DNA of 41,266 bases, from the IMG/VR virus record IMGVR_UViG_3300029746_000018; one strand, 5' to 3'. The DNA is from a virus. A model generated the notes under the pieces. That model made no database searches, was not told the origin of the DNA, and saw only the letters and a list, made by a program, of their open reading frames with translations. Position 1 is the stretch's first letter. Each line of letters begins with the position of its first letter. This document shows positions 3,120 to 41,266 of the stretch, piece by piece. Both the position numbers and the translations under genes were made by a program.

Positions 3120-3947
3120 CTATACCCACTTGCCTACGATCAGTTCTTTCGGTCTTGCGATGATTCCATCATACAAAATGAATCCCTTGACCGCGTCGAT
3201 AAACCCGTTTTCCGGTCTGTAAGGCTCGATGTGCGTCATCGGATTTACAAACGCAATCGCTCTGTTGGTCTTCAGCTGTACCATGTAGTTTCCGGAAGAA
3301 TCTTTCGCGCAGTTGTTGGATTCCTTGATCGTGATACCATTGTACTTGCCCACAACGCCGTTTTTCATCATAACAGAGTTGTCGGTATCAAGGTGCACAT
3401 ACGCCTGTTTCAAAAGCATAACGTGTTTCGGAGGAAGCGTCAGCGTGATGTTGGACGTTCTCTTTACATCGTTTTCAAGTAATTTAACAAGCATGTTGTC
3501 GATTGTTTCAAGGATGTTGTCCTTTGTGATGGTGGTTGCCGCAGAATTGAAAACAACCGCCTGTTTGTTTAATGACATATTCGCAACAAACCTATCCATC
3601 TCGTCCGCCAAGGCTTCGGAAGTTTCCTTTGCAAGGGCTTCCATTAAGCCGCCGACCGCCTGTCTTTTATCAATATCGCCTACTCCGTAATCAAAGTATG
3701 CTGCATGATTGATGTTAAGAGTGATAGACTGATCTGCGACCTCTTCTGGTCCGGTCAAAACAATCTTCTTACCTATCTGCGTCTTGATTGTTGGTTTACC
3801 TACGCCGAGAATTCTTACCGAATCGCCTTTCTGCTTAACTTCTCCTTCATACTGACGATTGGTGTCAGCCACGAATACATGATCTCTCTCGATGTCTCTG
3901 TTGATTGCTTCCGCCCATACTGTTGGAATAAAATTCTGATATGACAT
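3120..3947 (-). CDS. major capsid protein (small HK97-fold type)
   Basis: 275 aa, directly after the scaffold gene. The N-terminal FIPTVWAEAI segment and the size fit small capsid proteins. Supported by gene order. Confidence 0.6.
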   Translation of the reverse strand: MSYQNFIPTVWAEAINRDIERDHVFVADTNRQYEGEVKQKGDSVRILGVGKPTIKTQIGKKIVLTGPEEVADQSITLNINHAAYFDYGVGDIDKRQAVGGLMEALAKETSEALADEMDRFVANMSLNKQAVVFNSAATTITKDNILETIDNMLVKLLENDVKRTSNITLTLPPKHVMLLKQAYVHLDTDNSVMMKNGVVGKYNGITIKESNNCAKDSSGNYMVQLKTNRAIAFVNPMTHIEPYRPENGFIDAVKGFILYDGIIARPKELIVGKWV

Positions 3948-4690: not shown

Positions 4691-6361
4691 TTAAAAAACA
4701 GCCTGTTGGGCTGCTTCTTGACTGAATAATTGTTGTTGTACGAGTGCGATCGCGTCCTCTTGCGGAATTCCTTGAGACATTAAGTCAAGCACTTGTCTTG
4801 CGAAGTTTTCTCCGCTTTGTGCTTGCTGTTTCTGCATCATCGCTTCTCGCTTTGCAAGCATTGACCTTAATTGCCCTTTAGGGACCGGGCCATTGTCCGG
4901 CGCGAGGTCTGCATATTCCTCTAAGGATAACTGCTGACGGTCAAACATGTTGTCAAGCCACTGCTGATTAGAAAGCTTCGTCCACTGGTTATCCTGTGAA
5001 ACGTCAATCCTAACCGTAGGCTTCAGATCTTGCAACTGCTGTTGGTCGATTAAAGTCTGCACTTCTTCGCCCATATCGTTTGTAGAAGTTACTTGGATTC
5101 CCTCCGGATGGTAGGCAACCCACATATCAAACCATAAGAGCGCCACATCTTCAACAAACTGCTTATACCTAGCGACATTTTCGTTTAATGTTACCTGTGC
5201 GCTGTCTCTGACTGCGATAATCGCTTGCCCTGATGCCTGTTCCGGATTGACATTACCCATAGCGTAATCACTGGCACCGGCAAGATCTTTTGTGATTTGC
5301 AATAAATCGTTTTGCAGACTATTCGCATCGCTTGATATGTTTGTTGCGTTGAGGTAGGAAACTTGTTGTGAAACAGACTGTGCACCGCCGCCGCTTACCT
5401 CAATCGGCTTTCCGACTGTGTCTAGGTCCTCCGGATTCTGAACGGTTGAAGAATCATAAGCAATTCTAGGGAACGCACAAAGCTTGACTGTGATTGCGCG
5501 TCTTGCAGCTGTCTTATTTAACTCTAGTTGGTTTGGAATCAGTTGAGCGACTTCCGAAACGCCTCTAGCGTCATAAGGAATCGGTCTCCAGATCATTGAA
5601 CAAATCGGGTACGAATGCAGTCCGGTAACGTCTCCTTGGATTGCATGCATCGGTTCGTAAATGCACTGTGCAGTAGAACGTGCGACTTTTACAATCCCGT
5701 TCTCTTTTGTCATGTAAAGAAGCGATGTAACCTTATTGGAAACCTCATAGTTATTCAATATGACACCATCGTTTGCATTTGAATTGTCGTCTCCTACAAT
5801 CAGTTCGATGTCTTTTTTCGAAATACCGTTATCCTTTGCAATTTTTCTGACCGCCTCAACCTCTAATCTCTCTCGAATGATGATAAACGGCTGTTCTTGA
5901 AGATCTGTTATATTCTCATCTCCAAGCAAGATCGATGTGTTCGGCAGAATCTTCGGCGGCATATCGGTTCTGTCACTTCCCCAATACGCATAGGCGTCTC
6001 CTTGGATTGCTGCTGCATTGATTAAATCCCACGTTTTGGAATCCATTTTGGATTTTTCCCAGTTCTTCGCGAAGTTTTGGTTCAGAAGTTCGTATATCGG
6101 CTGTAAATCGCCTCTGTTCTCAATATCAGAGTATTTAGCTGTCATGGAGTTTTGCGAAACGACAGAAACCTTGTACTGAACAATCGGCAGGATAAAATTG
6201 AAAATCGGAAGCTCTTCGCCTCCGGTGTTACATCCGACCCACTGATTGCCAATATAGAAGTTCCAGTTTCGCTCTGTTTTCTTGACAAGCCCTTTTTTAT
6301 CAAGATAATCTTTGCATTTTTGGTACTTTTGCCATATTTTGGTGTAAACTTTATCTTGCAT
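4691..6361 (-). CDS. portal protein
   Basis: 556 aa, downstream of terL. An NFYIGNQW motif near the N-terminus matches SPP1-Gp6-type portals. Supported by gene order. Confidence 0.65.
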   Translation of the reverse strand: MQDKVYTKIWQKYQKCKDYLDKKGLVKKTERNWNFYIGNQWVGCNTGGEELPIFNFILPIVQYKVSVVSQNSMTAKYSDIENRGDLQPIYELLNQNFAKNWEKSKMDSKTWDLINAAAIQGDAYAYWGSDRTDMPPKILPNTSILLGDENITDLQEQPFIIIRERLEVEAVRKIAKDNGISKKDIELIVGDDNSNANDGVILNNYEVSNKVTSLLYMTKENGIVKVARSTAQCIYEPMHAIQGDVTGLHSYPICSMIWRPIPYDARGVSEVAQLIPNQLELNKTAARRAITVKLCAFPRIAYDSSTVQNPEDLDTVGKPIEVSGGGAQSVSQQVSYLNATNISSDANSLQNDLLQITKDLAGASDYAMGNVNPEQASGQAIIAVRDSAQVTLNENVARYKQFVEDVALLWFDMWVAYHPEGIQVTSTNDMGEEVQTLIDQQQLQDLKPTVRIDVSQDNQWTKLSNQQWLDNMFDRQQLSLEEYADLAPDNGPVPKGQLRSMLAKREAMMQKQQAQSGENFARQVLDLMSQGIPQEDAIALVQQQLFSQEAAQQAVF

Positions 6362-6613
6362 TTATAACTCCTTTTGCCCTTTGGAGGAACCGTCATAGTT
6401 TTCGATGTTCTCAAGTAATGTGTTGAGTCGACTCCGTTTTTCTGCGGCTTTTTTGTTTTCCTTGGCTCTTTCAATCTTCTGCATCGGCGTTTCCAGCTTG
6501 ATTTCCGGCTTGTTTGTCTCTCTTGCACCGATGTTATAGCCCTTTATAAAGCAAAAGACGCTCAAAATCGGCGTCAGTACGGCTAAAACCATAATTGTAA
6601 TGTCAGATAACAT
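6362..6613 (-). CDS. small membrane protein, unknown function
   Basis: 83 aa with one N-terminal TM helix and a Lys/Glu-rich tail. Wedged between terL and the portal gene. Confidence 0.4.
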   Translation of the reverse strand: MLSDITIMVLAVLTPILSVFCFIKGYNIGARETNKPEIKLETPMQKIERAKENKKAAEKRSRLNTLLENIENYDGSSKGQKEL

Positions 6614-8060
6614 GAATTTTGTCTCCTTTGTCGAATCTTTTCCCTTTTTTACGCTTTAGACCAGGGAAATTTCGCTCTAAAAACGATTCTTCTTTAATTT
6701 TTATCACTTTTGCGTCAGAATAAATGAATTTATTTAGAATCTGCGACATGCAGTCTACTTGGTCGTCGTGCTTTCCGTTCGGAAACGCCGCGCATTCCTC
6801 GACAAAGTCTCCGGTAAACGGTTTATTCTTCGGCAAAAAGCAGTTTCCGCTCTCAATCGTACCGATTACGGCATTGACACGAGAAACTTTTCCGCCGTCC
6901 GGATTGACTGCGATTATCCCGCCCATATGCGTCCTCAAGTACTTCACAATCGCAGAACCATTTGCCTTGTCCTCGATGTAGGTTGTCTTGCACATAGGAT
7001 ACATGCCCCTCAACCTTGTAATCTCTCGTATCGTGGACGGCATATCAAGGTGTTTTTTCACTGCGTCAATCAAGTAAAGGTTAGCATTTGTCTTTCCCCA
7101 CACTTGAATTGCCACAAAGTCGTTGTCGTCTCCGTCTTTGAACGCAGCATCAACGCTCATCGCCATTTTTTCAATATGGGGTAAAGTCTCGTAATACTGC
7201 CACCACTCACGTTTGATTATGTTGCCCTCAAGCCCTGTTGGATGCCCTTGGAATAATGCGTTCCATGCTCTTGAACCACTCAAGCTAGTGTAGGACTTCT
7301 TGAAGTCGGCAAGCCAAACATTGTCCTTGCCGATCTCCGGACACAAAGCATCTCCAACTTTTCTGCCTAAAATATCATCCGGCTCTGCCTCAAGCGGGAT
7401 ATTGACAACCTTGACATTCTGTTCTGTCTCAATCAGTCTTCCGGCTAAATCGTCCTCATGCCAGCGCGTCATAATCACAATGATTTTGGCACCGGCATAA
7501 AGTCTTGTCTTATACGACGAAAGCCATTCATCAAATACTCGATTACGATAACTTTCGGAATCCGCCTCTTGCTGTGTCTTTACTGGGTCATCGATAATCA
7601 TGAGGTCGCATCGACGACCAGTTACACCGGACAAAAGTCCTCTGCTTACCATGCCGCCCCTATGACCTTCAAGTTCAAACTCTGTCGCATTGGCAGGTGA
7701 ACCGATTTTCACTCCAAAAACATCACCGCAGAATTCTTTTATCTTCTGCAAATTGCGTCTGCCGAATTTCTGCGCGAAATCTTCAGAGTAGGAAATCTCG
7801 ATCACTGATTTTTCCGGGTTTCTACCAAGATACCAACTTGGAAGCGTCTCCGTCACTGTAACAGACTTACCATGCTGCGGGGGTGTAGACAAAATTAAGA
7901 TGTCATACGCATGCCCGGTGTTCTCTTCCAAAAAATCTTGCACCGTATCGCACAAAAACCGGTGGAATTTACTCACTTTATAGCCGTTATTGGTGTGTTT
8001 TACATACGCGCAGTAATCCGTCCTTAAAACGTCTCTATAGAGCCTCAAAACATCATTCAT
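6603..8060 (-). CDS. terL: terminase large subunit
   Basis: 485 aa. ATPase motifs present (PPQHGKS Walker-A-like, LMIIDDP Walker B), followed by a nuclease-type C-terminal half. Overlaps the upstream gene by 8 nt. Confidence 0.85.
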   Translation of the reverse strand: MNDVLRLYRDVLRTDYCAYVKHTNNGYKVSKFHRFLCDTVQDFLEENTGHAYDILILSTPPQHGKSVTVTETLPSWYLGRNPEKSVIEISYSEDFAQKFGRRNLQKIKEFCGDVFGVKIGSPANATEFELEGHRGGMVSRGLLSGVTGRRCDLMIIDDPVKTQQEADSESYRNRVFDEWLSSYKTRLYAGAKIIVIMTRWHEDDLAGRLIETEQNVKVVNIPLEAEPDDILGRKVGDALCPEIGKDNVWLADFKKSYTSLSGSRAWNALFQGHPTGLEGNIIKREWWQYYETLPHIEKMAMSVDAAFKDGDDNDFVAIQVWGKTNANLYLIDAVKKHLDMPSTIREITRLRGMYPMCKTTYIEDKANGSAIVKYLRTHMGGIIAVNPDGGKVSRVNAVIGTIESGNCFLPKNKPFTGDFVEECAAFPNGKHDDQVDCMSQILNKFIYSDAKVIKIKEESFLERNFPGLKRKKGKRFDKGDKIHVI

Positions 8061-11537: not shown

Positions 11538-11565
11538 AAAGCAAGGCATAACACCTTGCTTTTTT
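11537..11565. terminator. bidirectional intrinsic terminator between convergent operons
   Basis: AAAA-GCAAGG-CATAACA-CCTTGC-TTTTTT, placed between the stop at 11537 (+) and the stop at 11567 (-). Confidence 0.75.
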
Positions 11566-11566
11566 C

Positions 11567-11854
11567 TTATAACTCGTTTTTCAGTTCCTCAAGCCTTGCG
11601 ATCAGCCGGTCAATTTCTTCTGTGGTTTCAATCTTTACGCTTTTTCTCCCGTCCGCAAAGCCTGCTTCATACTGCTGCCGATCGTACTCCAACGCCTTTA
11701 TCAGTTCGTCTTTTTCGACATAGATGCCATATTTTCTGACAAATGAATAGACATCGTTTTCGATCTGTTCTTTTTGCTTGTCTATTCCGTCATAAATGAT
11801 TCTAATTGGTGACTCATAGCCTAGTTTTTTGAACACTTCTCCTATTCTGTCCAT
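11567..11854 (-). CDS. hypothetical protein
   Basis: 95 aa. Last gene of the early operon. No motif recognised. Confidence 0.5.
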   Translation of the reverse strand: MDRIGEVFKKLGYESPIRIIYDGIDKQKEQIENDVYSFVRKYGIYVEKDELIKALEYDRQQYEAGFADGRKSVKIETTEEIDRLIARLEELKNEL

Positions 11855-26507: not shown

Positions 26508-28028
26508 ATGGTACTGATGTATTTACGGAAGTCTCGTTCAGATAACCCATACGAGACTGTGGAAGAAGTGCTATCAAGGCATGAGACAATGCTTCAAGAA
26601 TACGCAGAAAAAGCATATGGTTATCGAATTCCGGAAAGTCAAATTTATCGTGAGGTCGTATCCGGAGAAAAGATTCACACACGACCGGAAATGCAGATAC
26701 TATTGAAACGAATTGAATCGTCTGACGTAAAATCTGTGTTGGTCGTTGACCCGCAGCGTCTTTCTAGGGGCGATTTAATGGACTGCGGTCGTTTGATGCA
26801 GGCGTTCAAATACAGCCGCACAACGATCGTTACACCAATGAAAATATTTGACTTATGGGATAAGTTTGACGAAAAGATGTTTCAAGACGAACTGCTACGC
26901 GGGCGTGATTACCTTGAATACGCGAAAGAAGTCATGGCGCGCGGGCGAAAACTGTCTGCATCAGAGGGTTGGTACCTTGGAAGCGTTCCGCCGTTTGGAT
27001 ATGACATTGATTACGTTATGGACGGCAAGCGTCGCAGAAAAACGCTGAAGCCTAACCAAATAGAAGCACCAATAGTTGATAAAATCTTCTCTTGGTTCGT
27101 GGACTTAAAAATGTCCTTGTATGGAATTGCAGCTAAATTAAACAACATGGGAATAAAACCAAGAAAAGCAGAACATTTCTCAACAGATGCAGTCAGACAC
27201 ATTCTTTCGAATCCTATTTATATAGGTAAAATTTCAGTTGGACGACGTCCGATGGTTGAAAAACTGGTTGACGGGAAAGTGGTTGTATCACGTCATAGGA
27301 CTGCCCCACAAAGAATTTTTGATGGAAAACAGCCTGCGATCACCCAAGAAGAAAGATTTTATGCTGCGCAAGAACGCCTCGGAAATCTTCCTAAAACAAA
27401 GATGGGCAAAGGGGTGACAAATCCTTTGGTAGGAATTCTAAAATGCAGCTGCGGTCGTGCTATGATATATCACCCAGGACGCGGTGAGGCAAGATTGATG
27501 TGCGCAAATCGAAGATACTGCGGATCACGTTCTGTTCCGTTTGAGGAAATATACAATGCTATCATAGATGCACTAAAAGAAAATGCAAGAGACTTTCAGA
27601 TTAAAATTGATTCCGGGATTGACATCGCACTACAGAGATACAACGAAGAAGTTTCGGAAATAAAAGGAAATCTTCAAGAACTCGATGTGCAGCAAGAAAG
27701 ATTGTTTTCGTTCCTAGAATCCGGAACGTACGACGAAATGACATTCCGGAAACGTAATTCTATTTTGATGGAAAAACAAGAGAAACTAAAAAAACAGTAT
27801 GAAGAGATATTGGCTAACGAGCCGGAAACAATCGACTACAAAGAGAAAATCGGAACACTGTATCAAGCAATAGACGCAATGAAATCAGAGGAACTAACAG
27901 CAAAACAGAAGAACGATTTTCTAAAAAATATAATAGGCAGTATCGTCTATACTCAATTAGAAATATTAGACAATGGAACAAGGTGGGGGAAGAACCAGTA
28001 CAGACTGGATATTTTTTTGAAAAATTGA
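26508..28028 (+). CDS. large serine recombinase (integrase)
   Basis: 506 aa. Resolvase-type N-terminus (YLRKSRSD..), then a recombinase domain, a Cys-rich zinc-ribbon (CSCGRAM..CANRRYCGS) and a C-terminal coiled coil. Confidence 0.85.
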   Translation: MVLMYLRKSRSDNPYETVEEVLSRHETMLQEYAEKAYGYRIPESQIYREVVSGEKIHTRPEMQILLKRIESSDVKSVLVVDPQRLSRGDLMDCGRLMQAFKYSRTTIVTPMKIFDLWDKFDEKMFQDELLRGRDYLEYAKEVMARGRKLSASEGWYLGSVPPFGYDIDYVMDGKRRRKTLKPNQIEAPIVDKIFSWFVDLKMSLYGIAAKLNNMGIKPRKAEHFSTDAVRHILSNPIYIGKISVGRRPMVEKLVDGKVVVSRHRTAPQRIFDGKQPAITQEERFYAAQERLGNLPKTKMGKGVTNPLVGILKCSCGRAMIYHPGRGEARLMCANRRYCGSRSVPFEEIYNAIIDALKENARDFQIKIDSGIDIALQRYNEEVSEIKGNLQELDVQQERLFSFLESGTYDEMTFRKRNSILMEKQEKLKKQYEEILANEPETIDYKEKIGTLYQAIDAMKSEELTAKQKNDFLKNIIGSIVYTQLEILDNGTRWGKNQYRLDIFLKN

Positions 28029-28030
28029 TT

Positions 28031-28072
28031 ACCATGATATCGGAACATACGAATCTGTTCCATGATGATAGT
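28031..28072. other. candidate attP core (imperfect dyad)
   Basis: The 17-bp arms accatgatatcggaaca and tgttccatgatgatagt match at 12 of 17 positions as an inverted repeat around tacgaatc. The site starts 3 nt after the integrase stop. Confidence 0.3.
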
Positions 28073-28091
28073 TATATATTGACTTCAACAG

Positions 28092-28119
28092 AAAAACCAC
28101 CGGCAAGCGGTGGTTTTTT
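28092..28119. terminator. bidirectional intrinsic terminator
   Basis: AAAAA-CCACCG-GCAAG-CGGTGG-TTTTTT, between the convergent integrase operon and the five-gene cassette. Confidence 0.75.
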
Positions 28120-28188
28120 CTGTGAAGTGTGTGTGTATACTCGTACGAAAGATAGGATTTCTACATTATTATTATACCTCTGATGTTT

Positions 28189-28629
28189 TTATGCGTCAAG
28201 AAAATACTTTGCTACTTTGTATTTCTTTCCATCAACGTCATTGATGAAGTTATCCGACATGCTGTAATAGAATTCTGTGTCTTCAGACATACCCACCATA
28301 GCCGCTGTGTCGTGATAATCGTTGTAGCACATATTCATCACCATGTACCATGAAACGCAATCAAAATCGCTTCTTTTTGCGCTTATAAATGAAACGATTG
28401 TTTCCATCGACCATTTCTCGCCATACGGACGCATGCTTCTGACGATCTCTTTTGCCTTTTCATCGCAAATATGGTATGCCACTGCGCCAATTTCGTCCAT
28501 GATACTTTCATAGCACGCAGGGTCGTATCTTTTCAATCGTTCCATTCCGTTATTGATTGCATGGTGAACCCTATCCCATTTCGGCTCTTCCTTGCGCGAA
28601 ATAAGACTAATCAATTCCATGTATTCCAT
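28189..28629 (-). CDS. cassette gene 5, hypothetical (146 aa)
   Basis: TAATG-coupled to gene 4. Rich in aromatic and Cys residues. No motif recognised. Confidence 0.5.
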   Translation of the reverse strand: MEYMELISLISRKEEPKWDRVHHAINNGMERLKRYDPACYESIMDEIGAVAYHICDEKAKEIVRSMRPYGEKWSMETIVSFISAKRSDFDCVSWYMVMNMCYNDYHDTAAMVGMSEDTEFYYSMSDNFINDVDGKKYKVAKYFLDA

Positions 28630-29021
28630 TACTGAATCCTTTCTACCGTCACGATTGCGTTATTGACTGTGGCTGATGCAGACAGTCTGAACGACAATGC
28701 AGCTTCCGTTCCGATGTTGTTTCTTACAGCCCGCACAATATCCGTAACGTTGAGCGTGATAAGGTCTGTTGCAGCTGCCGATGTCGCCCCTGCTGCCGCA
28801 TCTGGGATAGCAACGCCGTTGTTATACATCTGCAAAGTAATGTTTCCGGCAGCTACACCTGTAATATTAAACATCGCGTCAATATCATACGCGCCGCATT
28901 TGTTTAAGTTGATGCGGTTATTCGTCATTGCTGTGTTGCAATTCGTATTGAAGATGAGATTCAGCGGAATATCCGTTCCGGCTGTTACTGCTGTCGCAGT
29001 TGTGATGTTTGCTTTTAACAT
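28629..29021 (-). CDS. cassette gene 4, BclA-C-terminal-domain-like (C1q/TNF jelly-roll-like) protein
   Basis: TDIPLNLIFN..GAYDIDAMFNITG..ITLQMYNNGVAIPDA..AIVTVERI parallels the BclA C-terminal domain pattern as I recall it. Start set to ATG 29021, 6 nt after an AAGGA RBS. The track start is TTG 29042. Confidence 0.45.
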   Translation of the reverse strand: MLKANITTATAVTAGTDIPLNLIFNTNCNTAMTNNRINLNKCGAYDIDAMFNITGVAAGNITLQMYNNGVAIPDAAAGATSAAATDLITLNVTDIVRAVRNNIGTEAALSFRLSASATVNNAIVTVERIQ

Positions 29022-29042
29022 TTTCATTCCTTTCCAAGACAA

Positions 29043-29061
29043 CGGCGGGGAAACCCCGCCG
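29043..29061 (-). promoter_or_regulatory. GC hairpin between cassette genes 3 and 4 (no U tract)
   Basis: CGGCGGGG-TTT-CCCCGCCG on the minus strand. It could be an attenuator, a processing site or a stability element. Confidence 0.35.
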
Positions 29062-29077
29062 ATTCTTTAACCTATCG

Positions 29078-29671
29078 TTATACTAAAGTCGTCCCTGTCA
29101 TTCCATTGCACCCATAGGCGATCGGTGCCATGTAATAACCATACGGATTCGTTTTCGGAATGCCGCATAATGCAGTCTGAAGCTGAAGCTGATTGATTTG
29201 ATTCTGCATATCTGCCATTCTGTTTCCGGTGATGGCATCTAAGATTTTCTGTGTCTGTTCTGTCGTGTTTGCATTGATTGCCGCGGTATTGATTGCACCA
29301 TTGTAGTTTACGCCGTCAATCGCTCTCTGCGTCTCGCAGCAACACTGCGAAATCTGATTTTGTGTCGTGCCGAAGTTACGAAGCGTTTCGTATCCAAGAT
29401 TGGAAAGTCCGTTCTGAAGACCCATGTAATCAGCCTGCAAGCTGTCATTCAATCTACCGACTGCGTTGTCAAGGTTGTTGAAGTTCATAGCATTGCAAAG
29501 CCCTGCTTCTGTGACCGGAGAACCTTTTGCCCCACCGAAACCAAACCCGCCGCCACCGATGAGCAGAAGAATCAGCAAAGCGAAGATCCACAATCCGGAA
29601 CCGCCGCCACCGAGTACGCTTGTATCCTTGCCGGTAACTGCGCTGATGTCAGCTAAAGAATAATTTTCCAT
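29078..29671 (-). CDS. cassette gene 3, glycine-zipper membrane-anchored Cys/Gln/Asn-rich protein
   Basis: 197 aa with an AAGGAG RBS. The anchor is GGGGSGLWIFALLILLLIGGGGFGFGG. The ectodomain has a CCC triplet and a Q/N-rich helix. Confidence 0.5.
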   Translation of the reverse strand: MENYSLADISAVTGKDTSVLGGGGSGLWIFALLILLLIGGGGFGFGGAKGSPVTEAGLCNAMNFNNLDNAVGRLNDSLQADYMGLQNGLSNLGYETLRNFGTTQNQISQCCCETQRAIDGVNYNGAINTAAINANTTEQTQKILDAITGNRMADMQNQINQLQLQTALCGIPKTNPYGYYMAPIAYGCNGMTGTTLV

Positions 29672-29709
29672 GATAATACTCCTTTTCTTTTATTTATAAA
29701 ATTGCAATT

Positions 29710-29934
29710 TTATCGAAGCATGCCAAGAATCATATCGGGGTTTATGCCCATTTCGTTGCATTTCTGATAAAAAACCTCTTGTGGATTTTTACCGTTTACC
29801 ATATCCATAACCTCTTTGATTCTTGGGTCGTTCATTTGACTAAGCGCGGACATCGGGTCTTTTGCAGTCTGCATGATTTGTTTTATTTGACCGATTGCTG
29901 GTGCGATCTGTGTCATTTGTAGAATAGGATTCAT
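29710..29934 (-). CDS. cassette gene 2, small helical hypothetical protein
   Basis: 74 aa. TAATG-coupled to gene 1. Confidence 0.45.
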   Translation of the reverse strand: MNPILQMTQIAPAIGQIKQIMQTAKDPMSALSQMNDPRIKEVMDMVNGKNPQEVFYQKCNEMGINPDMILGMLR

Positions 29935-30221
29935 TACTCTACCCCCTTATCTGCGAGCGACTTTTTGATTGTTTCGGATAATTCCATGATCTGCGCCTTT
30001 AATTCGTCTAATTCCGCATGATTTACAATATCAGCTTTCGGTTCTTGCACTTCCACAAAATCAAAAGCCTTTACCGTAGAGAATCCGGAAGCGTCGGACG
30101 TTTTCAAATAGAATCTAGGTCTTGTAGAATCCATCAGTATGACTTGTTGGTTCGGGAAAATTCTATAAGCGTTTGCGCTCTCTATTCCATTGACATATTG
30201 AATGCCCTGTGTGTTGAACAT
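29934..30221 (-). CDS. cassette gene 1, hypothetical (95 aa)
   Basis: The track TTG start was replaced by ATG 30221, 6 nt after an AAGGAG RBS. Reads MFNTQGIQYVNGIESANAY... Confidence 0.5.
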   Translation of the reverse strand: MFNTQGIQYVNGIESANAYRIFPNQQVILMDSTRPRFYLKTSDASGFSTVKAFDFVEVQEPKADIVNHAELDELKAQIMELSETIKKSLADKGVE

Positions 30222-30296
30222 GATTTTCTCCTTTTTTCTTTTATTCTGACACGCATACGCCAATGAGACAATTTACGAAAAAGGTACAAAAAAGGC

Positions 30297-30328
30297 ATAA
30301 AAAAAGAAGGGGTCAGAATCGACCCCTT
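30297..30328 (-). terminator. intrinsic terminator ending the late operon
   Basis: On the minus strand: AAGGGGTC-GATTCT-GACCCCTT, then C and TTTTTTT. It overlaps the stop codon of the sigma-like gene. Confidence 0.75.
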
Positions 30329-30527
30329 ACAATACTTTCCCTATTTTCCTGTTTACACGTTGAGAATATTTCCTTGCTGTGTCTGCTGATATGTTGAGTG
30401 CTTCGGCGATTGCTTCTAAGGGAATCCCTCTTGACCGCATCTCAAATACTTCAATCTCTAAATTGACAAAATTGCAATTTTCACGAAAGAAGTCGAGTTC
30501 CGGCTTGGTGAAGCCACATACCCGCAT
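30327..30527 (-). CDS. sigma-70 region-4-only HTH mini-protein
   Basis: 66 aa. LEIEVFEMRSRGIPLEAIAEALNISADTARKYSQRVNRKI has a region 4.2-type HTH layout. Confidence 0.55.
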   Translation of the reverse strand: MRVCGFTKPELDFFRENCNFVNLEIEVFEMRSRGIPLEAIAEALNISADTARKYSQRVNRKIGKVL

Positions 30528-30535
30528 GTTTTCTC

Positions 30536-30859
30536 CTATTCTTTTATCTCTTTCTTTACCTGTTCGTAGACAGCTTCAATAATTTTGTCTAATTCGTCGG
30601 CAGAGACATTGATTCTCAGCTCTTGCAGCTTATTGGAAACAAACTGCAAAACCTCTGCCTTTTTCTTTTCGCCTGTTTCAGACTGCATCCACTGTTTCGC
30701 CCATCTGACTGAAACTTCCGTCCAGTACATGATTGTTTCCTGCTTTTCTTTGCTCATTTCAGCCTTTGCAGTCTTCCATTTTGCCGTCACAAGCGGGACT
30801 AAAACGCCTGTGATAATCAGTGTGCATAAGCTAATAATTACTTCCGTCCAGTTGATCAT
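30536..30859 (-). CDS. LL-H-type holin-family protein
   Basis: 107 aa. A single N-terminal TM helix is followed by W..EVSVRWAKQW..GEKKKAEVLQFV..LDKIIEAVY, as in Holin_LLH proteins. Confidence 0.55.
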   Translation of the reverse strand: MINWTEVIISLCTLIITGVLVPLVTAKWKTAKAEMSKEKQETIMYWTEVSVRWAKQWMQSETGEKKKAEVLQFVSNKLQELRINVSADELDKIIEAVYEQVKKEIKE

Positions 30860-31423: not shown

Positions 31424-32032
31424 CTAAATCTCCTTTATATACTCTCTGATTCCCTTGATTCTTGCGTAGCCCTTATCGGTTTTTAGCCACGTCCCTTGCG
31501 GAATTCCGGTCACATACTCGCCCTTTTTCAGCTTTCCCGCTGTGGGTGCTGTAAGCGATGCCTTTTGTCTGATATTGACCGTAGAAAGCACTCTATAGGT
31601 CTTTTCTACGACTTTCGGACAATAAATGAATCCTTGCAGCTTGTATCCGGTAAAGTACGTGTACGGCGGTTTTAAGGTCATTGTGCGGAACCGAAACTTC
31701 TTGTAACCGCTCTCGCCAATTACAATGGAACCGTCAGACTTGATATCCTCGACAATAGCAACATGCCCTTTGCCCTGCGCCTCACCTTTCGACCAACAAA
31801 TAACGGCTCCAAGTCGTGGCGTATCGCCGCGATCGTAGCCGTCCTTGATGTTCTTATACCAGTTTCCCGCATTGCCAAGAGAAAGCTTCGGTGTTTTGCC
31901 GATAATTTCATACCATCTGCCCCAAGCATACGCTGTGCAGTTTGGCAGTCCGTACCCTGCGCTATGGAACGGATTTTTCCTCGTCCACAACGCGTTATTC
32001 GGTGCGGGTGCTTTTAACCTTGGTTTGTACAT
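31424..32032 (-). CDS. CHAP-domain endolysin with C-terminal SH3b-like wall-binding domain
   Basis: Catalytic Cys in NCTAYAWGRWYE and catalytic His in GHVAIVEDI. The C-terminal segment YRVLSTVNIRQKAS..GTWLKTDKGYARI is SH3-like. Confidence 0.8.
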   Translation of the reverse strand: MYKPRLKAPAPNNALWTRKNPFHSAGYGLPNCTAYAWGRWYEIIGKTPKLSLGNAGNWYKNIKDGYDRGDTPRLGAVICWSKGEAQGKGHVAIVEDIKSDGSIVIGESGYKKFRFRTMTLKPPYTYFTGYKLQGFIYCPKVVEKTYRVLSTVNIRQKASLTAPTAGKLKKGEYVTGIPQGTWLKTDKGYARIKGIREYIKEI

Positions 32033-32044
32033 ATCTTCTCCTTT

Positions 32045-35000
32045 CTAGTACGGACTGTGTTTCGCCGTACTAAGCGCCAAAAATATTGCCTTCTTCTGCG
32101 CAGTGCTGAATCCGCTGTTCTGATTGAAAAAGGACACAATTTCGTCTTTACTGTAGCTTCCGTTTCCGTTTGCGTCTATGAATTCTGCCACTTGGTCTAA
32201 TTGATCAGGTGTAACGCCCGATTGCTTTAGCCAAGTTGCACGCTGAACGGCTCGTTCTGATGTCATAACTGATGCCACATCCACAGATTGACCATTATCG
32301 AGTAAAGCATATGCTTGACCGATAGACTTCTTGTACCCACTGTCCTTTACGATGGTTTTTGCAGTGTTTACATCGTCCAATGTAACACCGCGTTTCTTTA
32401 ATTCTGTTGCATCATCAATCGCGCTTTGAGATGTCATAGCCTTTGCTAATTCCGGAGATTTTCCGTTTTCCAATAGTGCATACGCCTTGGCAACGTTGCT
32501 GTCGAAGCCTTGCACAATGCTCTTTGCCTCTGCATAATCCTCTTTGCTGATGCCAAGTTTCTTGAATTTCTTTTCATAGCTTTGCTTCTGCTGTGTATTC
32601 ATTTGCGTTTCATATTCCGGATTATCTTGATACGCAGAAACAGCCGATTGCACCCTTTGGCTTGCGCTGCGGGCTATCTCATTCTTCTGTTCTCTGATTG
32701 CTTTAATTTGACGATCCTTTTCTGCTTTCGATAGACCGCTAGACAAAATCTCACGTTCTTGCTTAGACAAGTCGGATAATTCCTGTTGAATAGCGTTGTA
32801 TGTCTTATTCTCTACATACGCTTGACCTTTGCCGCCAGTCAAGATTTTTTCGTCATTCGCGGCACGTTCCGCATTTTCCTTGTTATCGTAGAAATCGGAA
32901 ACAACGCCCGATGAGAATCTAGGGTCTGCGGTGAACCTGTTGACAAATGGGTCTATTGTAGCACCTTTGATTCTTTCTCCTATACCCTGCAGCTGCGGGT
33001 CAGTTACCGCTTGACCTACTTGCCCTAGATACCCGCCGAAACTGTCAAGCAGATAATCGACTTTCATCGGACTTTTTAAGGTGTCGGATGGTATTCTAAG
33101 GTTATTTGCCACATTGGAAATCCCCTTTGCTAGTCCGCTTGTCGAGTAGTCATATTGCAGCTGCGGCGAAACATTTTCGAGATTCTTCGGAACGATAGAA
33201 CGCCCCGCAAAGTCCTTGTTTTGCGGCAAGTTTAAGGCAAGCGGAGAAAGAACATTGTCTGTAAGCGGATTCGGAGGAAGAAAGTTTGTTTTTAATGTTT
33301 CCGCGTATCCGTTCCAAGGGTTGGCTTCTCCGCTCAAATACCCTGCGATAACGTCCATTGAAGAAGCAAATATTGACCCGTATTCTCTATTGAGCGGTAT
33401 TTTGATAAATGTCTTTGCGTTTCCGCTCTCATCAATCTCCCCTGCAAGGTTTGGAATACAGAAGTAGTTCTGTTTGGTTCTGTCGTTAAGGTCTTGATAA
33501 TGCGGGTTTGACCAGTTATTTACCATTAAAAGCGCATACGGAACTCCAACGACTTCAAGGCTCCTAGCCGCTGTTCTGACTGGATGTGCCTTGGCTGTTC
33601 TAACAAACTTGTCAATACCTTGTACTGCCGCATTGAGGTAAAGCGTCCATGCGTCAAGGAATTTTGTGACCTCTCCCGCTCTCGAGAAGTTTACCGTCAC
33701 TTCCGCTGATTCCGTCAATGCCCTTGCTGCATCTCCATGCGCTTCCATAGAGGACATAAACTCTGCAAATCTAGGTATGGATTCTGTTGCTTCACCGACG
33801 GAGCCAAGGACTGTTTTCATGCCCTCCCATATATTCCTAATAGGATTTTTGCTCAAAGATAAATTCTTTTCAAAACCCTTATTCGCCTTGATATATCCGG
33901 AAGACTTACCGCCCAAAGCAAGGTATCTTTGCCACATATCGCCGTTTGTAGCAATTTCCTTGATGCCTCTGAACATATTCTTTGTCGTTTTGAGCATTCC
34001 ATATTCAGATTGAATCAATGCGGTAGGGATATCTCTTGCTGCATTCGATATAGCGAATAATGGGTTGTATCCAGTGATTCCCGCTTTTAATGGGTTCGTA
34101 ATGGACTTTCCAATGTTTGCAAACATCTGCATCTGCGGCGAACCGATAAGATTATCCAGTTTTCCAAAAGCCTCCGCTAGGTCCTTGTTGATGTAGGCTG
34201 TGACTTTTTGACCGTTTTCCATTGCGGATATGGTGTATACTTTGGAGTTTACTTCTTTCAACGCTTCTTGGTCCGCTAATGACAAAAACTCATCAATGTC
34301 CGTTCCGCTGATTGGTGAAGTTTCGCTCTTAACGATACCAAATCTTTTGAGATTTTCGGGGTCTTTCCGCAGTGTGTCAATAACGCTAAGATACATGTCG
34401 TTCTTTCGTGTTGACTTGACAAGCTGCTGAACCTGTTCCATCATTGCATCTTCAATCGGCACTCTGTCAAGCGTTGTGCCAGCTTTGGCACCCTTTGTAC
34501 CGGCATCAACGGCAAACTTGCTTCCGCCTACTCTAACGCCCTTGTCTTTCATAAAAGCGGGAACATAGTTTGGATACATGTCGTTCATTGCTTTCCATGC
34601 CTGTTCGTTCATTCTTCCTGTATCAACAAGCCAAGCATGGGTGAATTTCTGCCAATAGTCGTTGATATCTTGCGTCATTTTCGCAAATTCCGGATGCTCT
34701 TTCAGAATTTCGTTTACGATTCTTTGCGATTCTTCCGCAGAAACGCTTCGATCAAGCGGCTTATCCTGTGCCCATCTCGCGATGTTATTTAGATTCTGCG
34801 CATAGACGTTGAATTCCTTAGAATTCTTGGAAACTGGCATAAAAACGTCCTTGAATGAGCGATTATCTATGATGTCGCCGTTTGGATTGACAAGTTTATT
34901 CGTGAAGATATATTCAGATGTTCCGCTTGCGCTTCTTGTCGCTTGAACCGCATCCGCCGCGCGTCTGTCTCCGGCAGCCTTTGAAAGCCTGTCAATCTCA

Positions 35001-36988
35001 TGCTGTTGGTTTACAGTCGCTTTGTAGAATTTATCAAACTTTCCGCTTGCATTTTCCATCGCCTCTTGAACAGTCTTAACGTCCGGATTGACAATTCCAA
35101 GGTTTTGTTTTCCTACAACATCAAAACCACCGACCTTTGTCTCTTTGCCGGAAGGTGTTATTTTGACTTCTTCGGCAGCCTGTTTAATGGGCGGAGCAAT
35201 TTCAGCGTCCTTAAACGCTTGGTTCGGTCTAGCTACATCTGCGCCAAGGTCTTTTAGCTTGACATTATTTTGGGAATTTGATATACTTTGATTAAGAGTT
35301 GATTCTAAATCGACTGCGGTAGGTTGTGGACCTACGTCGGCAGCCGATTTTGGGATCAGCTCTATTTTTTCGACATTGTGCGTCTTATAGTTATTGACAT
35401 TTGGGAATGCTTCTACATCAATGCGAGCGATGTAATCTTCACCATTTATTCTCACATCAGATTCAAAATAATCAAATCTTACAGTGTTTTTAGTCTTTGA
35501 ACCATGAGGAACATATGAACCGCTTCCAACATAGTCGGCATTTTTTAACGCATCATCGACAACGCTTAGGAACGCAATGTTATTCTCTTTTGTTCCATCG
35601 GAAACAATTTTTCCAACCGATTTCTTGTTTAAGCTTACCTTATAAGGCTCTCCATTAAACGAAAGACCATTTACTGTAACAGTTCTCGGTGACCCGAAAC
35701 GTTCTTTCAATTCTCGCTTCAAGTCGCTCTTTCTCGGAGAATGTTCGACAATATATTTTACATCGTCCATTGTACTCCCAGATATCTCAACTGAATTTTT
35801 AACGCTATTAGCTGTTTTTTTAGGTACTTCACCGCTATAAGGATTCTTTATATACGTTGCTTTTCCTGCTTTTTTCCCATTAGCTGTTGGAAGTTCCATT
35901 TTAGGCTCGATTTTGACGTTTTCAGCCTGTTCTGAGATGGTTTTAGGCAATTCTATCTTTGGTGTAACTTCGTCCTTTACAGCCTGTTTTACGACTTTTG
36001 GAAGTTCTTTCTTGACAGCTTTCTTTGAGCCTTTTAAGGCTTTTACCACTGGAATTGCTTCCATGACACCGCCAGTAACCGCATTGATTCCGGCATTGAC
36101 CGCCATGTCCTTGGCAAGTTCTTTGCCTTTTTTGCCCTCGCCTCTTGCCAAGCCTAAATCCATCGCAGTACCAACAGTAGCATCTGCGATCGCGTTCTTG
36201 GTAGCACTCTTTAGGACCTGTTTTGTCGCTTCCTCGCCGATTTTCTTGCCGACCTTGCTCGCAACGGCTTTTTCGGTTGCTTTTTTGCCTGCTTTAGTAG
36301 CAAGTACTTTTCCTGCAGCCTTTGTGGTCGCTTTTTCAGCTGCGCCATATCCAGTAGCATAGCCAAGCATTTCGCCTGCGATGTTGCCTATTTTCCTAGA
36401 CTTCGCTGCGTTCTTTGTCGGTTCTACTTCAAGCGGGTTGAAACTCGCGATTTTTTTGCTTGTTTCTTTCTGTGTTTTGTTTTTTCTGTTAGGAACATAT
36501 GCTTGCGTAGCCGCATTTTTTATTTTTTTAGGTTTGTATTTGCCTTTTGGCGGCTTAGTCATTACGTCGCTTTCAGACAGTTTTTTGCCAGTTGCGATGC
36601 TGTATGCTGTGCCCGGAAGCGAGGAATTTATAAATCCCTCGCCCAAGCCAGTATAGAATTGACCGACTTTATCGTTCTTAAATCCGCCTTTTCTGTTGTA
36701 CTCTGCTTTCTTCTCTTTGGCAATCTGATCTTGCACCTTTTGGCGTTCTGCGGTCGGTAAAAAGTCAGATTTAATGTCGCGCCAAAGCCAGTCGGCTTGC
36801 TGTTTGACCTTTTCCTTTAAGGTTTTGGGGGGTAGAGAAGTTGAAGTTTCCTTTCTCTTTGCATCTTTTCTTGCCCTATCCATATCAGATTGTGTTGGAA
36901 GCTTTGACGTTCTTCTCGTCTGCGCCTTTTTCTTTTCTCTGTCTAGGTCTGCTTGTGTAGGAAGTTTTGACGTTCTCCTTGTTGCCAT
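32045..36988 (-). CDS. giant virion-associated protein (1647 aa; ejection/internal or tape-measure-like)
   Basis: Single uninterrupted ORF. Lys/Ala-rich N-terminal third with a duplicated TRRTSKLPTQxDxDR. Gly/Ala hydrophobic stretch. C-terminal repeats of about 45 aa, and an EF-hand-like loop DANGNGSYSKDE (32141..32176). Confidence 0.5.
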   Translation of the reverse strand: MATRRTSKLPTQADLDREKKKAQTRRTSKLPTQSDMDRARKDAKRKETSTSLPPKTLKEKVKQQADWLWRDIKSDFLPTAERQKVQDQIAKEKKAEYNRKGGFKNDKVGQFYTGLGEGFINSSLPGTAYSIATGKKLSESDVMTKPPKGKYKPKKIKNAATQAYVPNRKNKTQKETSKKIASFNPLEVEPTKNAAKSRKIGNIAGEMLGYATGYGAAEKATTKAAGKVLATKAGKKATEKAVASKVGKKIGEEATKQVLKSATKNAIADATVGTAMDLGLARGEGKKGKELAKDMAVNAGINAVTGGVMEAIPVVKALKGSKKAVKKELPKVVKQAVKDEVTPKIELPKTISEQAENVKIEPKMELPTANGKKAGKATYIKNPYSGEVPKKTANSVKNSVEISGSTMDDVKYIVEHSPRKSDLKRELKERFGSPRTVTVNGLSFNGEPYKVSLNKKSVGKIVSDGTKENNIAFLSVVDDALKNADYVGSGSYVPHGSKTKNTVRFDYFESDVRINGEDYIARIDVEAFPNVNNYKTHNVEKIELIPKSAADVGPQPTAVDLESTLNQSISNSQNNVKLKDLGADVARPNQAFKDAEIAPPIKQAAEEVKITPSGKETKVGGFDVVGKQNLGIVNPDVKTVQEAMENASGKFDKFYKATVNQQHEIDRLSKAAGDRRAADAVQATRSASGTSEYIFTNKLVNPNGDIIDNRSFKDVFMPVSKNSKEFNVYAQNLNNIARWAQDKPLDRSVSAEESQRIVNEILKEHPEFAKMTQDINDYWQKFTHAWLVDTGRMNEQAWKAMNDMYPNYVPAFMKDKGVRVGGSKFAVDAGTKGAKAGTTLDRVPIEDAMMEQVQQLVKSTRKNDMYLSVIDTLRKDPENLKRFGIVKSETSPISGTDIDEFLSLADQEALKEVNSKVYTISAMENGQKVTAYINKDLAEAFGKLDNLIGSPQMQMFANIGKSITNPLKAGITGYNPLFAISNAARDIPTALIQSEYGMLKTTKNMFRGIKEIATNGDMWQRYLALGGKSSGYIKANKGFEKNLSLSKNPIRNIWEGMKTVLGSVGEATESIPRFAEFMSSMEAHGDAARALTESAEVTVNFSRAGEVTKFLDAWTLYLNAAVQGIDKFVRTAKAHPVRTAARSLEVVGVPYALLMVNNWSNPHYQDLNDRTKQNYFCIPNLAGEIDESGNAKTFIKIPLNREYGSIFASSMDVIAGYLSGEANPWNGYAETLKTNFLPPNPLTDNVLSPLALNLPQNKDFAGRSIVPKNLENVSPQLQYDYSTSGLAKGISNVANNLRIPSDTLKSPMKVDYLLDSFGGYLGQVGQAVTDPQLQGIGERIKGATIDPFVNRFTADPRFSSGVVSDFYDNKENAERAANDEKILTGGKGQAYVENKTYNAIQQELSDLSKQEREILSSGLSKAEKDRQIKAIREQKNEIARSASQRVQSAVSAYQDNPEYETQMNTQQKQSYEKKFKKLGISKEDYAEAKSIVQGFDSNVAKAYALLENGKSPELAKAMTSQSAIDDATELKKRGVTLDDVNTAKTIVKDSGYKKSIGQAYALLDNGQSVDVASVMTSERAVQRATWLKQSGVTPDQLDQVAEFIDANGNGSYSKDEIVSFFNQNSGFSTAQKKAIFLALSTAKHSPY

Positions 36989-39991: not shown

Positions 39992-41266
39992 CTATCTCAC
40001 CTCAATCTTTACTTTTAATACTTCTTCTAATGGGGCAAACGTCATTGATACTTCTCCGTTCGTTACAGAAACAGTTTCCGGTGCAACCTTATACTTATTC
40101 GTATAAATATCAATGGTTGAATTTTCTGTGATTGCTGTATTCTGAAACGCAATACTTGTACCGCCGACTGGAATCGTTCCAATATTGACACTCGGAACCC
40201 TTGCTTTTTTATTCAATTCTGCCGTTGTGTCGTTCGGAAGTTTTGAAACTTTGTTCTTGTCTGTGTCTGTATAGTCATTCTTGGATAGATTTTTGCCTGC
40301 AACTTTGTCGACCTTGTTTCTCAGGGCGTCTGTGGTGTTGGCAGGCAGATTATCTACTTTTCCTTTGTCCGCATTGTTATAATTATTCGCAGACAATCCC
40401 ATTCCATCGACTTTGTCTACCTTTGTATCAAGACCGGCTTTCAGTTGAGAAGTCGTTGCATAATCTCCGCCAGATGCCTCTCTTGCCTGTTCCATGTAAT
40501 ACTTGGCGTTGTCAACATCTTCACCCTCTCTTGTTCCTGTGCCGCCTTTTGTATAGGACTGCGCCAAAATAGCGGAATTGTTTGCCGCGTTTGCTCTTTG
40601 ATTTGCTATCGTTGCGGCGTTCCCTGCGCTTGTTGCGCTTTCCGAAGCCGCATCTTTCGAAGCCGCAGCGGATTCTGAATATCCCTTAGCGGACTGCTCA
40701 AATGTGCTCGCGTTGTTTGCGCTTGCCTCTGCCGCTGTCGCGCTTCCCGCCGCTGAATTTGCGCTTCCTGCCGCCGCAGAAACATATCCCTCTAAGGTTG
40801 ATACTGCCGCAAGCGACAAATAGTCTAGTGTGATAGAGTTCGGTTTCACACTGATGCTTACAGAATATTTCGGGTCTTCCGTAACGGCAATCGTATCGGA
40901 GTTATTAAAGGTGTATACGTTCAGTAATGATGTGACATCGGTTTGCGTATAGGTCCCGTCTTGGTTCGTGATTCTTAAATATGTCTTTCCGTCAATTTCC
41001 ATCAACTCAAAGCTTGCAGGGATTTTTTCAAGGTCGGTATCAATTTCGGTTACAGTTCCGCTCTTTGTTGTGATTTTGAATTTTCCGTCTCCCTTTGTGA
41101 AGCTGATGCTCTCAACTAAATCATTTGTTTCTTCGGATATCTTCGCATCAGTCTCTGCCTTTGTGTAACGGGATGCAATATCATCTGCGATGCTGTCAAG
41201 CCCAAGAGTTATCAATAAATCGACTAATGCATTGTGCTTATCCATATTCAGCTGCGGAAATTTATC
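39992..41266 (-). CDS. tail fibre protein, body (true start at 210 across the circular junction; 461 aa in total)
   Basis: Contains an Ala/Ser-rich coiled segment. Also has repeated K.DKV.GKxLSxNDYT-type motifs typical of phage fibres. The ORF stays open to the window end and continues from 210..1. Confidence 0.7.
   Translation of the reverse strand, partial: DKFPQLNMDKHNALVDLLITLGLDSIADDIASRYTKAETDAKISEETNDLVESISFTKGDGKFKITTKSGTVTEIDTDLEKIPASFELMEIDGKTYLRITNQDGTYTQTDVTSLLNVYTFNNSDTIAVTEDPKYSVSISVKPNSITLDYLSLAAVSTLEGYVSAAAGSANSAAGSATAAEASANNASTFEQSAKGYSESAAASKDAASESATSAGNAATIANQRANAANNSAILAQSYTKGGTGTREGEDVDNAKYYMEQAREASGGDYATTSQLKAGLDTKVDKVDGMGLSANNYNNADKGKVDNLPANTTDALRNKVDKVAGKNLSKNDYTDTDKNKVSKLPNDTTAELNKKARVPSVNIGTIPVGGTSIAFQNTAITENSTIDIYTNKYKVAPETVSVTNGEVSMTFAPLEEVLKVKIEVR
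41168..41266. repeat. terminal direct repeat identical to 1..99
   Basis: See the feature at 1..99. Confidence 0.9.

Follow-up and report, generated by a model that had tools for sequence, protein, structure and literature searches.

The described systems that come closest to the gene cassette analysed here are prophage morons, the superinfection exclusion (Sie) proteins of several phages, protein p16.7 of phage phi29, anti-CRISPR loci with their Aca regulators and, for one of the encoded proteins, the exosporium proteins of Bacillus. The cassette lies in the phage genome IMGVR_UViG_3300029746_000018, an IMG/VR virus record whose whole stretch of 41,266 nucleotides (nt) is called the window below, and consists of five minus-strand genes, named G1 to G5 in the direction of transcription, and of a small helix-turn-helix (HTH) gene that precedes them (Table 1). 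Like prophage morons, it is self-contained, with its own terminators and promoter-like site, is located in the window between the lysis genes and the phage attachment site (attP) and integrase, and is dispensable among related phages. Judged from the sequence, terminators on both sides and a weak promoter-like site make it an independent transcription unit, and similar insulation is seen in relatives. Unlike morons, the cassette has several genes in a fixed order, a regulator of its own and no compositional anomaly (a GC content of 43.4% against 42.9% for the genome), and it is conserved across phyla-spanning phage groups, in integrase-less phages and at other genome positions. Its carriers go beyond temperate phages, as indicated by XP41-N3, by crAss-like phages (for G3 only) and by loci beside SNF2 genes.

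Sie2009 of lactococcal phages, Ltp of Streptococcus thermophilus and Imm and Sp of T4 are membrane-associated phage accessory proteins with temperate as well as virulent carriers, and their genes are often promoter-proximal or separately transcribed. They are single proteins, in contrast to a set of five to six genes with a putative C1q-like trimer, and have no sequence or profile similarity to the cassette proteins; G3 is also far more conserved than usual Sie proteins, and exclusion is a candidate role of the cassette. Protein p16.7 of phi29, a non-essential accessory protein, resembles G3 in its layout, with a membrane anchor at the N-terminus, then a coiled coil and one more domain, but the two are not homologous, and G3 lacks a DNA-binding motif and has partner proteins. 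Anti-CRISPR loci with Aca HTH genes show a comparable linkage of a conserved small HTH gene to a variable accessory operon with repeat operators at its promoter. In the cassette, however, the HTH gene lies upstream in a separate late unit, the operon has a highly conserved membrane protein, and there is no evidence for anti-defence activity. Only the fold of G4 and family labels (DUF7841, PHROGs) tie the module to anything catalogued, and a literature search on DUF7841, the PHROGs, BclA together with prophage and the names of the Clostridium perfringens phages found no functional study. The initial annotation, made from the window sequence, had called the cassette possibly a previously undescribed system, in agreement with our finding that no function is described for the module in the libraries or literature searched.

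Comparison of about 150 loci, fetched from phages of podo and sipho type and larger ones, from contigs of metagenome-assembled genomes (MAGs) and from two isolated C. perfringens phages, revealed that the order HTH gene, terminator with phased repeats and promoter, G1-G2-G3, hairpin, G4(-G5) and terminator is kept in very different phages, and the arrangement exceeds chance. G3 and the HTH protein are far more conserved than G1, G2 and G4. Together, the HTH gene and the five genes form a single accessory module that is autonomous and has passed between phages of gut anaerobes. The five tightly packed genes, the overlaps, the ribosome-binding sites and the hairpins proposed in the initial annotation are all found where it had placed them, and its view of the five genes as a unit was borne out, since they co-occur, are co-oriented, are bounded by terminators and recur in many phages. 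TAATG overlaps of stop and start codons at G1/G2 and G4/G5 point to translational coupling of each pair, and AAGGAG-type ribosome-binding sites stand in front of G1 and of G3.

The IMG/VR loci compared were the best 80 of 298 G3 relatives, obtained by tblastn and gene clustering and located on contigs of 4-58 kb. The order HTH-G1-G2-G3-G4 recurs in these 80 loci, a small open reading frame (ORF) occupies the G2 position between G1 and G3 in about 79 of them, and G3 is the most conserved cassette protein, being 63-70% identical where G1, G2 and G4 are 30-45% identical. An equivalent order was detected by a hidden Markov model scan in 22 loci on genome contigs, with G3 identity down to 22-40%. 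Subject to the uncertain binning of phage contigs, the bins of these contigs were assigned to Mogibacterium, Acutalibacteraceae, Oscillibacter, Lachnospira, Ruminococcus, Christensenellales, Alistipes, Bacteroidaceae, Eggerthellaceae, Phascolarctobacterium and others. Genes resembling G1, G2 and G3 also stand in this order in CPD1 and XP41-N3, the two isolated C. perfringens phages, where the next gene encodes an unrelated protein of 125 amino acids (aa) that is rich in Cys. A 207-aa Cys-rich gene, CPD1_038 (locus L091, 5182-5805), is inserted between G2 and G3 of CPD1 and is not there in XP41-N3; by eye it is a candidate HNH or homing endonuclease.

Homologues of G3 of about 300 aa, with the anchor, the CCC triplet and a Cys-rich tail, were found in some crAss-like phages, in Bacteroides phage C3_41T2LP and in viruses assigned to Methanomassiliicoccales. 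In C3_41T2LP a DUF7841 gene lies three genes past the G3 homologue (E 5.3e-16). By hhalign, G1 showed no similarity to gp024 of the crAss-like phage cr116_1, nor did G4 to the proteins that take its place in CPD1 and cr116_1. Since the neighbours have not been shown to be homologous to G1 or G4, we claim only G3 for the Bacteroides/crAss group, together with DUF7841 in one Bacteroides phage. The crAss-type G3 is matched by only 35 phage records, which presumably do not include crAss001, and G3 thus appears accessory even within crAss-like phages. A search of isolated phages at the DNA level returned two short fragments only.

The six-gene order, the regulator, the cis-elements and the conserved G3 in about 150 loci indicate a function that many gut phages pay to keep, and the distribution of the G3 core extends to Bacteroides phages and to viruses that have been assigned to an order of methanogens. 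The presence of G1 to G3 in the isolated phages CPD1 and XP41-N3 makes the module accessible to genetics, proteomics and challenge assays. Once identified, the function would annotate a large block of the dark matter of the gut virome and could reveal a new mode of phage-phage or phage-membrane interaction.

The HTH gene had been regarded as a sigma-region-4 gene outside the cassette, a placement that the distribution of the gene contradicts. A reverse search from the HTH gene, with a narrower HTH alignment as the query, found G1 and G3 directly downstream in 49 of the 50 loci that had enough sequence downstream, and the HTH gene is therefore a constant member of the cassette. Its product matches Pfam GerE with a marginal pass (E 2.4e-5, 24.3 bits against a cut-off of 23.5), shows weaker matches to Sigma70_r4_2 and to a sigma-factor PHROG, and is 54-69% identical between lineages. 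The terminator recognised in the initial annotation at the stop of this gene is present and its position is conserved: downstream of the HTH stop, a hairpin with T-run is present in 59 of 63 unique related regions, compared with 50 of 300 control windows, while the stem sequences are unrelated between lineages.

Between this terminator and the promoter-like site lies a candidate operator array of three phased 11-nt units, the last of which overlaps the -35 box in the window. Per 100 nt, the loci retrieved with the HTH gene contain 1.6 copies of the motif T[AG]C[AC][TC]T in the region of the array and 0.15 copies elsewhere, and the GTACATTTTT-like repeat unit is enriched about 11-fold within 100 nt past the HTH stop. 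Of 47 pairs of repeat copies, 34 are spaced by 11 nt and 7 by 22 nt, and the sole exact copy of the motif in the window genome is at the array. The promoter-like site noted in the initial annotation between the terminator and G1 is present as well; we judged it weak because it agrees with the consensus at 8 of 12 positions and stays under the scan threshold. An equivalent promoter-like site of the 50-57 kb lineages, TTGTGA-17-TACAAT, is embedded in the terminator: the repeats extend into the terminator, whose loop and 3' arm make up the -35 box and the spacer. The GC-rich hairpin between G3 and G4 is, by its sequence, a candidate partial terminator or processing and stability element, and a hairpin with T-run was found in the G3-G4 spacer of 40 of 49 unique related regions. 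At the other end, the cassette is closed by the bidirectional terminator that had been placed beside the integrase.

The G3 protein has a single hydrophobic span with Gly-run flanks (residues ~22-47), and the remainder is an N/Q-rich helical C-terminal region. Homologues ranging from those of Firmicutes phages to the crAss type all keep the CCC triplet (110-112) and a Cys close to the C-terminus. The Gly-flanked anchor and the CCC triplet described in the initial annotation were thus recovered, and its label of ectodomain for the C-terminal part is not established: among 91 representatives, the flanking charges gave 46 ties, 34 cases leaning to a C-in topology and 11 leaning to N-in. G3 is also abundant: clustering at 90% identity gives 5,706 clusters and that at 50% gives 1,145 representatives, in addition to the 298 IMG/VR relatives, and nearly all relatives are 170-240 aa long. 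It matches phrog_16490, a family without functional annotation, and none of the listed G3 cluster members carries a functional name or Pfam domain. Pfam and PDB-profile searches found no DNA-binding signature in G3. The G3 profile gave a weak match to apolipophorin-III among PDB sequences (E 0.03), which we regard as a compositional hint and not as homology.

Structure prediction confirmed that G4 is, in its model, a stand-alone jelly roll of the BclA-C/BxpB/C1q/TNF type, as the initial annotation had recognised for its C1q/TNF-like fold. The AlphaFold2 (AF2) model reached a predicted local distance difference test score (pLDDT) of 90.7, and its top Foldseek matches in the PDB were BxpB (8d02), BclA (3tyj/1wck), F-BclA (9h38) and ExsFA (7r1m), with E values of 3.5e-7 to 1e-5, template modelling (TM) scores of 0.65-0.79 and identities of 13-16%, followed by TNF and C1q domains (TM 0.6-0.75). 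By sequence, G4 of the window matches Pfam BclA_C over its full length under the cut-off (E 4e-4, 20.6 bits against 38 bits), BclA_C is matched by 8 of 17 members of the family alignment (best E 1.8e-7), and BclA is the best hit of the G4 profile among PDB sequences (E 0.003). The nearest structures in the viral library, with TM scores of up to 0.98, are stand-alone proteins of 130-150 aa encoded by uncultured gut phages of the podo, sipho and myo types; fibre knobs rank after these. G4 therefore has the jelly-roll fold in common with BxpB/ExsFA and the C-terminal domain of BclA of the Bacillus exosporium, with weak, full-length sequence similarity, and is, like BxpB/ExsFA, a stand-alone domain (~130-170 aa). 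Unlike BclA, it lacks a collagen-like region and an exosporium-targeting N-terminus: the 130-aa protein is jelly roll end to end, with no GXX repeats, and has no extension before the first strand, targeting segment or signal peptide. Unlike the exosporium proteins, G4 is phage-encoded, belongs to a fixed operon with a membrane protein and is also found on contigs binned to non-sporulating gut taxa.

G1, G2 and G5 had been said to match nothing that could be named. Our searches changed this for two of them: G5 is a member of Pfam DUF7841 (E 2.7e-9, 37.7 bits against a cut-off of 25.2) and G1 matches phrog_21718 (E 1e-14), a family without assigned function; for G2 there was only a sub-threshold match. 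G1 has a small beta-rich domain followed by a C-terminal coiled-coil-like helix, and its relatives carry a variable Q/N/P/M/Y-rich N-terminal tail that is missing from G1 of the window. None of the 2,085 clusters found with the G1 profile has a name or Pfam domain, and the profile had no match in the PDB. G2 proteins are 67-87 aa long and combine a Met/Gln-rich N-terminal half with the conserved C-terminal motif GKNPxxVFYQKCxxMGIxPD; a weak match to Pfam STI1/HOP DP (E 0.0013) was below the cut-off. The G5 profile gave a weak EF-hand-like stretch against the PDB (E 0.02), and DUF7841 follows G4 in 6 of the 22 genome-contig loci, being a frequent and not a constant last gene. By eye, no cassette protein other than G3 has a signal-peptide-like N-terminus. 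The defence role proposed in the initial annotation received no homology support: with PADLOC, G1 gave one weak match to PDC-M03A that is probably due to chance (E 0.0027, 14.8 bits) and the other five proteins gave nothing, and NCBIfam had no significant match for the cassette proteins, the E value of G3 against ZorA being only 0.1. Likewise, no holin, antiholin or spanin family was matched by G1 to G5 in Pfam, PHROG or NCBIfam.

It is quite possible, if somewhat short of probable, that the cassette is an undescribed, self-regulated and horizontally spreading phage system that forms a membrane-anchored complex with an exchangeable C1q-like head and excludes rivals or manipulates the membrane; that it has no catalogued defence, lysis or virion counterpart is a part of this reading which we hold with the same reserve. 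The cassette proteins would assemble a complex at the cytoplasmic membrane of the host, in which G3 would be the conserved anchor or effector and the putatively trimeric, C1q-like G4 an exchangeable recognition head, replaced by proteins without detectable sequence similarity in C. perfringens and Bacteroides phages. G1, with its beta domain and coiled coil, and the Met-rich, chaperone-like G2 would be assembly partners, and the DUF7841 protein an optional add-on. The HTH protein would bind the 11-nt phased repeats, either as an activator or as a repressor, and the operon would be transcribed on its own schedule from the promoter under its control. Its most likely purpose would be to alter the membrane of the infected or lysogenic cell against competing phages, in the manner of superinfection exclusion. 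We read the cassette as a membrane complex because of its insulation from late transcription, its dedicated regulator, the conserved G3, the replaceable G4 and partners without a signal-peptide-like N-terminus by eye. As to the specific function, phage-phage exclusion or manipulation of the host membrane or envelope by a regulated complex anchored in the cytoplasmic membrane is the assignment that we favour, although it is tentative and rather doubtful. If true, the cassette would represent a new kind of phage-encoded membrane machine.

Several observations weigh against an exclusion complex at the membrane. Its support comes from sequence and predicted structure, no cassette protein matches a known exclusion or defence family in PADLOC or NCBIfam, and the strong conservation of G3 is unusual for conflict genes. 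The topology of G3 is ambiguous from its flanking charges, with a slight lean to C-in, and its AF2 model, built with 45 homologues, is unusable (pLDDT 42). The fold of G4 is seen in viral structure libraries mostly in knobs of tail fibres or collagen-like fibres, and the G3 homologue of cr116_1 sits within the head-gene block. The HTH gene appears from its position to be co-transcribed with the holin and, if its product is an activator, the cassette would be expressed very late, fitting a role in egress or in the virion better. One further record, P0203 (387 aa), joins a tape-measure fragment (phrog_1272, E 1e-32) to the C-terminal half of a G3 homologue and is either a true fusion or an assembly chimera; it was not used as evidence.

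Some of these points are shared with the main rival explanation, which we consider unlikely and in which the cassette is a very late accessory module whose products join the virion, act at egress or are released at lysis. G3, with its hydrophobic segment and coiled coil, and G1 would then form the stalk, and G4 the trimeric knob, of an optional fibre, adhesin or envelope-penetration complex, G2 would keep the hydrophobic segment soluble, and the HTH protein of the late operon would turn the operon on just before lysis. The HTH gene indeed ends the lysis operon, the repeats are placed upstream of or over the -35 box like activator sites, the core promoter in the window is weak, and lysis genes usually precede the cassette. 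The head-gene location in cr116_1, the names 'spike protein/glycoprotein' and 'outer capsid protein/viral fiber' given by others to a G3 homologue, the tail-fibre tips and collagen-like fibre knobs among the BFVD and PDB neighbours of G4, the tape-measure/G3 fusion P0203 and the weak STI1/DP-like Met-rich character of G2 also agree with it. However, a conserved strong terminator that stops late transcription from entering the cassette is a strange feature for genes needed late, and the spread over podo-, sipho-, myo- and crAss-type phages is hard to square with docking on a specific virion. The small number of records with a crAss-type G3, the early or replication-region sites in XP41-N3, C3_41T2LP and Dulem virus 39, and the fact that the P0203 fusion is a single record and possibly a chimera also argue against a late function. 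The proximity to lysis genes would fit, too, an accessory role in lysis control or egress, with G3 acting like an antiholin or holin partner and tuning the timing of lysis jointly with the holin genes next to it. Upstream of the cassette, holins and endolysins are the most frequent genes, the HTH gene is directly adjacent to the holin, and G3 is a small bitopic membrane protein, yet no cassette protein matches a holin, antiholin or spanin family and the conserved terminator parts the cassette from the lysis genes. In CPD1/XP41-N3, C3_41T2LP and Dulem virus 39 it lies at least 3.5 kb from the lysis genes or elsewhere, and a set of four to six proteins with a putative C1q-like trimer is without precedent in lysis control, a function that we regard as very unlikely.

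The initial annotation had interpreted the cassette as a lysogenic-conversion moron, expressed in the prophage and possibly changing the surface of the spore or of the cell by means of a BclA-like protein together with a membrane protein rich in Cys, and had taken its position close to attP as the textbook one for such genes. No other unit separates the cassette from attP and the integrase in the window and its close relatives, and an integrated copy at a prophage edge adjoins a host gene for a small acid-soluble spore protein (SASP), which indicates that this host is a spore former. The cassette's own terminators and promoter-like site, the exosporium proteins BxpB, ExsFA and BclA as best structural matches of G4, a regulator that is GerE-sized and GerE-type and the Cys-rich character of G3 also speak for this model, Cys-rich proteins being typical of spore coats and exosporia. 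The position is not a defining one, since the cassette is also found in XP41-N3, in the 50-57 kb phages and in Dulem virus 39, and its presence in phages without an integrase and away from attachment sites makes a lysogeny-only or spore-surface role unlikely. Moreover, G3 homologues occur in Bacteroides and crAss-like phages and the full module on contigs binned, with the uncertainty mentioned above, to non-sporulating taxa; G4 has no collagen-like region, N-terminal targeting segment or signal peptide; and the regulator gene belongs to the late operon, whose genes are silent in lysogens. The distribution of the cassette and the missing collagen-like region of BclA in G4 speak against a general role in remodelling spores or exosporia, and conversion in this sense is quite unlikely. 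A membrane tether for phage DNA replication or assembly, similar to p16.7 of phi29, seems highly improbable. It would agree with the N-terminal anchor and following helical regions of G3, with the slight C-in lean of the flanking charges and with the replication or recombination genes that adjoin the cassette in the 50-57 kb phages, CPD1/XP41-N3, C3_41T2LP and Dulem virus 39, but G3 has neither a DNA-binding signature nor homology to p16.7, the cassette is transcriptionally insulated from the replication operon in a 57.5-kb phage, and in the window the replication genes are far away. Altogether, the models of spore or cell-surface conversion, lysis control and replication tether are weaker than those of exclusion and of a late module, and the cassette is probably neither a virion part nor a lysogeny- or spore-specific conversion function.

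Table 1. Features of the cassette and of its surroundings in the window (41,266 nt).
Feature	Position	Strand	Remark
Major head protein	3120-3947	(-)	late operon
Portal	4691-6361	(-)	late operon
Large terminase	6603-8060	(-)	late operon
Serine integrase	26508-28028	(+)	506 aa; convergent on the cassette
Bidirectional terminator	28089-28119		A-run/hairpin/T-run; closes the cassette opposite the convergent serine integrase
G5	28189-28629	(-)	146 aa
G4	28629-29021	(-)	130 aa, counted from ATG
GC-rich hairpin	29043-29061	(-)	8-bp all-GC stem; between G3 and G4
G3	29078-29671	(-)	197 aa
G2	29710-29934	(-)	74 aa
G1	29934-30221	(-)	95 aa, counted from ATG
Promoter-like site TTGTCT-17-CAGAAT	30243-30271	(-)	TG before the -10 box; read from sequence
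Three 11-nt phased units ATGCCTTTTTT / GTACCTTTTTC / GTAAATTGTCT	30266-30298	(-)	between terminator and promoter; candidate operator array
Terminator hairpin AAGGGGTCGATTCTGACCCCTT + T-run	30299-30328	(-)	overlaps TAA of the HTH gene
HTH gene, GerE/LuxR (sigma-70 region-4-like)	30327-30527	(-)	66 aa; last gene of the lysis/late operon, abuts the holin
Holin (Holin_LLH)	30536-30859		Phage_holin_6_1, 1.6e-18
CHAP endolysin	31424-32032		lysis block
1647-aa protein	32045-36988	(-)	between tail genes and endolysin

The window is a complete circular phage genome, with an exact direct repeat of 99 nt at its ends (1-99 and 41168-41266), and the minus-strand late operon spans the ends of the circularly closed assembly. 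The lysis block also holds two small membrane or coiled-coil proteins. In a relative, the counterpart of the 1647-aa protein has the Pfam domain LPD38, which points to a protein of the polyvalent type.

Analysis of the cassette neighbourhoods indicates that holins and endolysins mostly lie upstream, and tyrosine or serine integrases, SNF2-helicase replication genes or host genes downstream. The site varies accordingly, and the cassette is found after lysis genes, at the prophage edge, in the early region or after replication genes. The genome of XP41-N3, with the cassette in its early region, lacks an annotated integrase and has all annotated genes but one on one strand. In the 50-57 kb phages the cassette lies between the lysis genes and the SNF2-helicase replication genes, and in a 57.5-kb phage (locus L120, 9064-12330) it is a unit of its own between two terminators. 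This unit comprises two tiny ORFs, G1 to G4 and genes of 74, 193 and 112 aa, and ends at a terminator with a 15-bp stem, followed by a consensus TTGACA-17-TACAAT promoter of the SNF2 helicase operon. A 99-aa gene at the equivalent position in other lineages showed a weak rubrerythrin/ferritin-like match. None of these small downstream proteins (74-76 aa, 99-193 aa ferritin-like, 111 aa) has a significant Pfam or PHROG family, and a BhlA-like assignment of the 74-aa protein was dropped. In Dulem virus 39 (locus L181, 16886-21185) the cassette is far from the lysis genes, past the replication genes, and an integrase-annotated gene stands between the HTH gene and a series of a tiny ORF, a G1-like gene, G2, G3, a 76-aa gene and G4.

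Where a close relative is integrated, the cassette closes the phage part and abuts the host SASP gene, and the junction of phage and host falls within an inverted repeat, about 80 nt beyond the terminator of the cassette (loci L116/L117, ~11560-11620). The relatives with a mapped junction carry a different serine recombinase of 434 aa, and the attP of the window is accordingly a candidate. At the equivalent place the window has the inverted repeat GGAACA-N8-TGTTCC (28042-28061). Rfam gave no match in the cassette or in the stretch after G5. A near-consensus promoter, TTGACG-17-TATAAT (11 of 12 positions; 28171-28199, minus strand), lies at the stop codon of G5, and the bidirectional terminator about 60-75 nt beyond it could yield a short transcript between the cassette and attP. 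Relatives whose terminator and integrase differ match this stretch with 93-95% identity.

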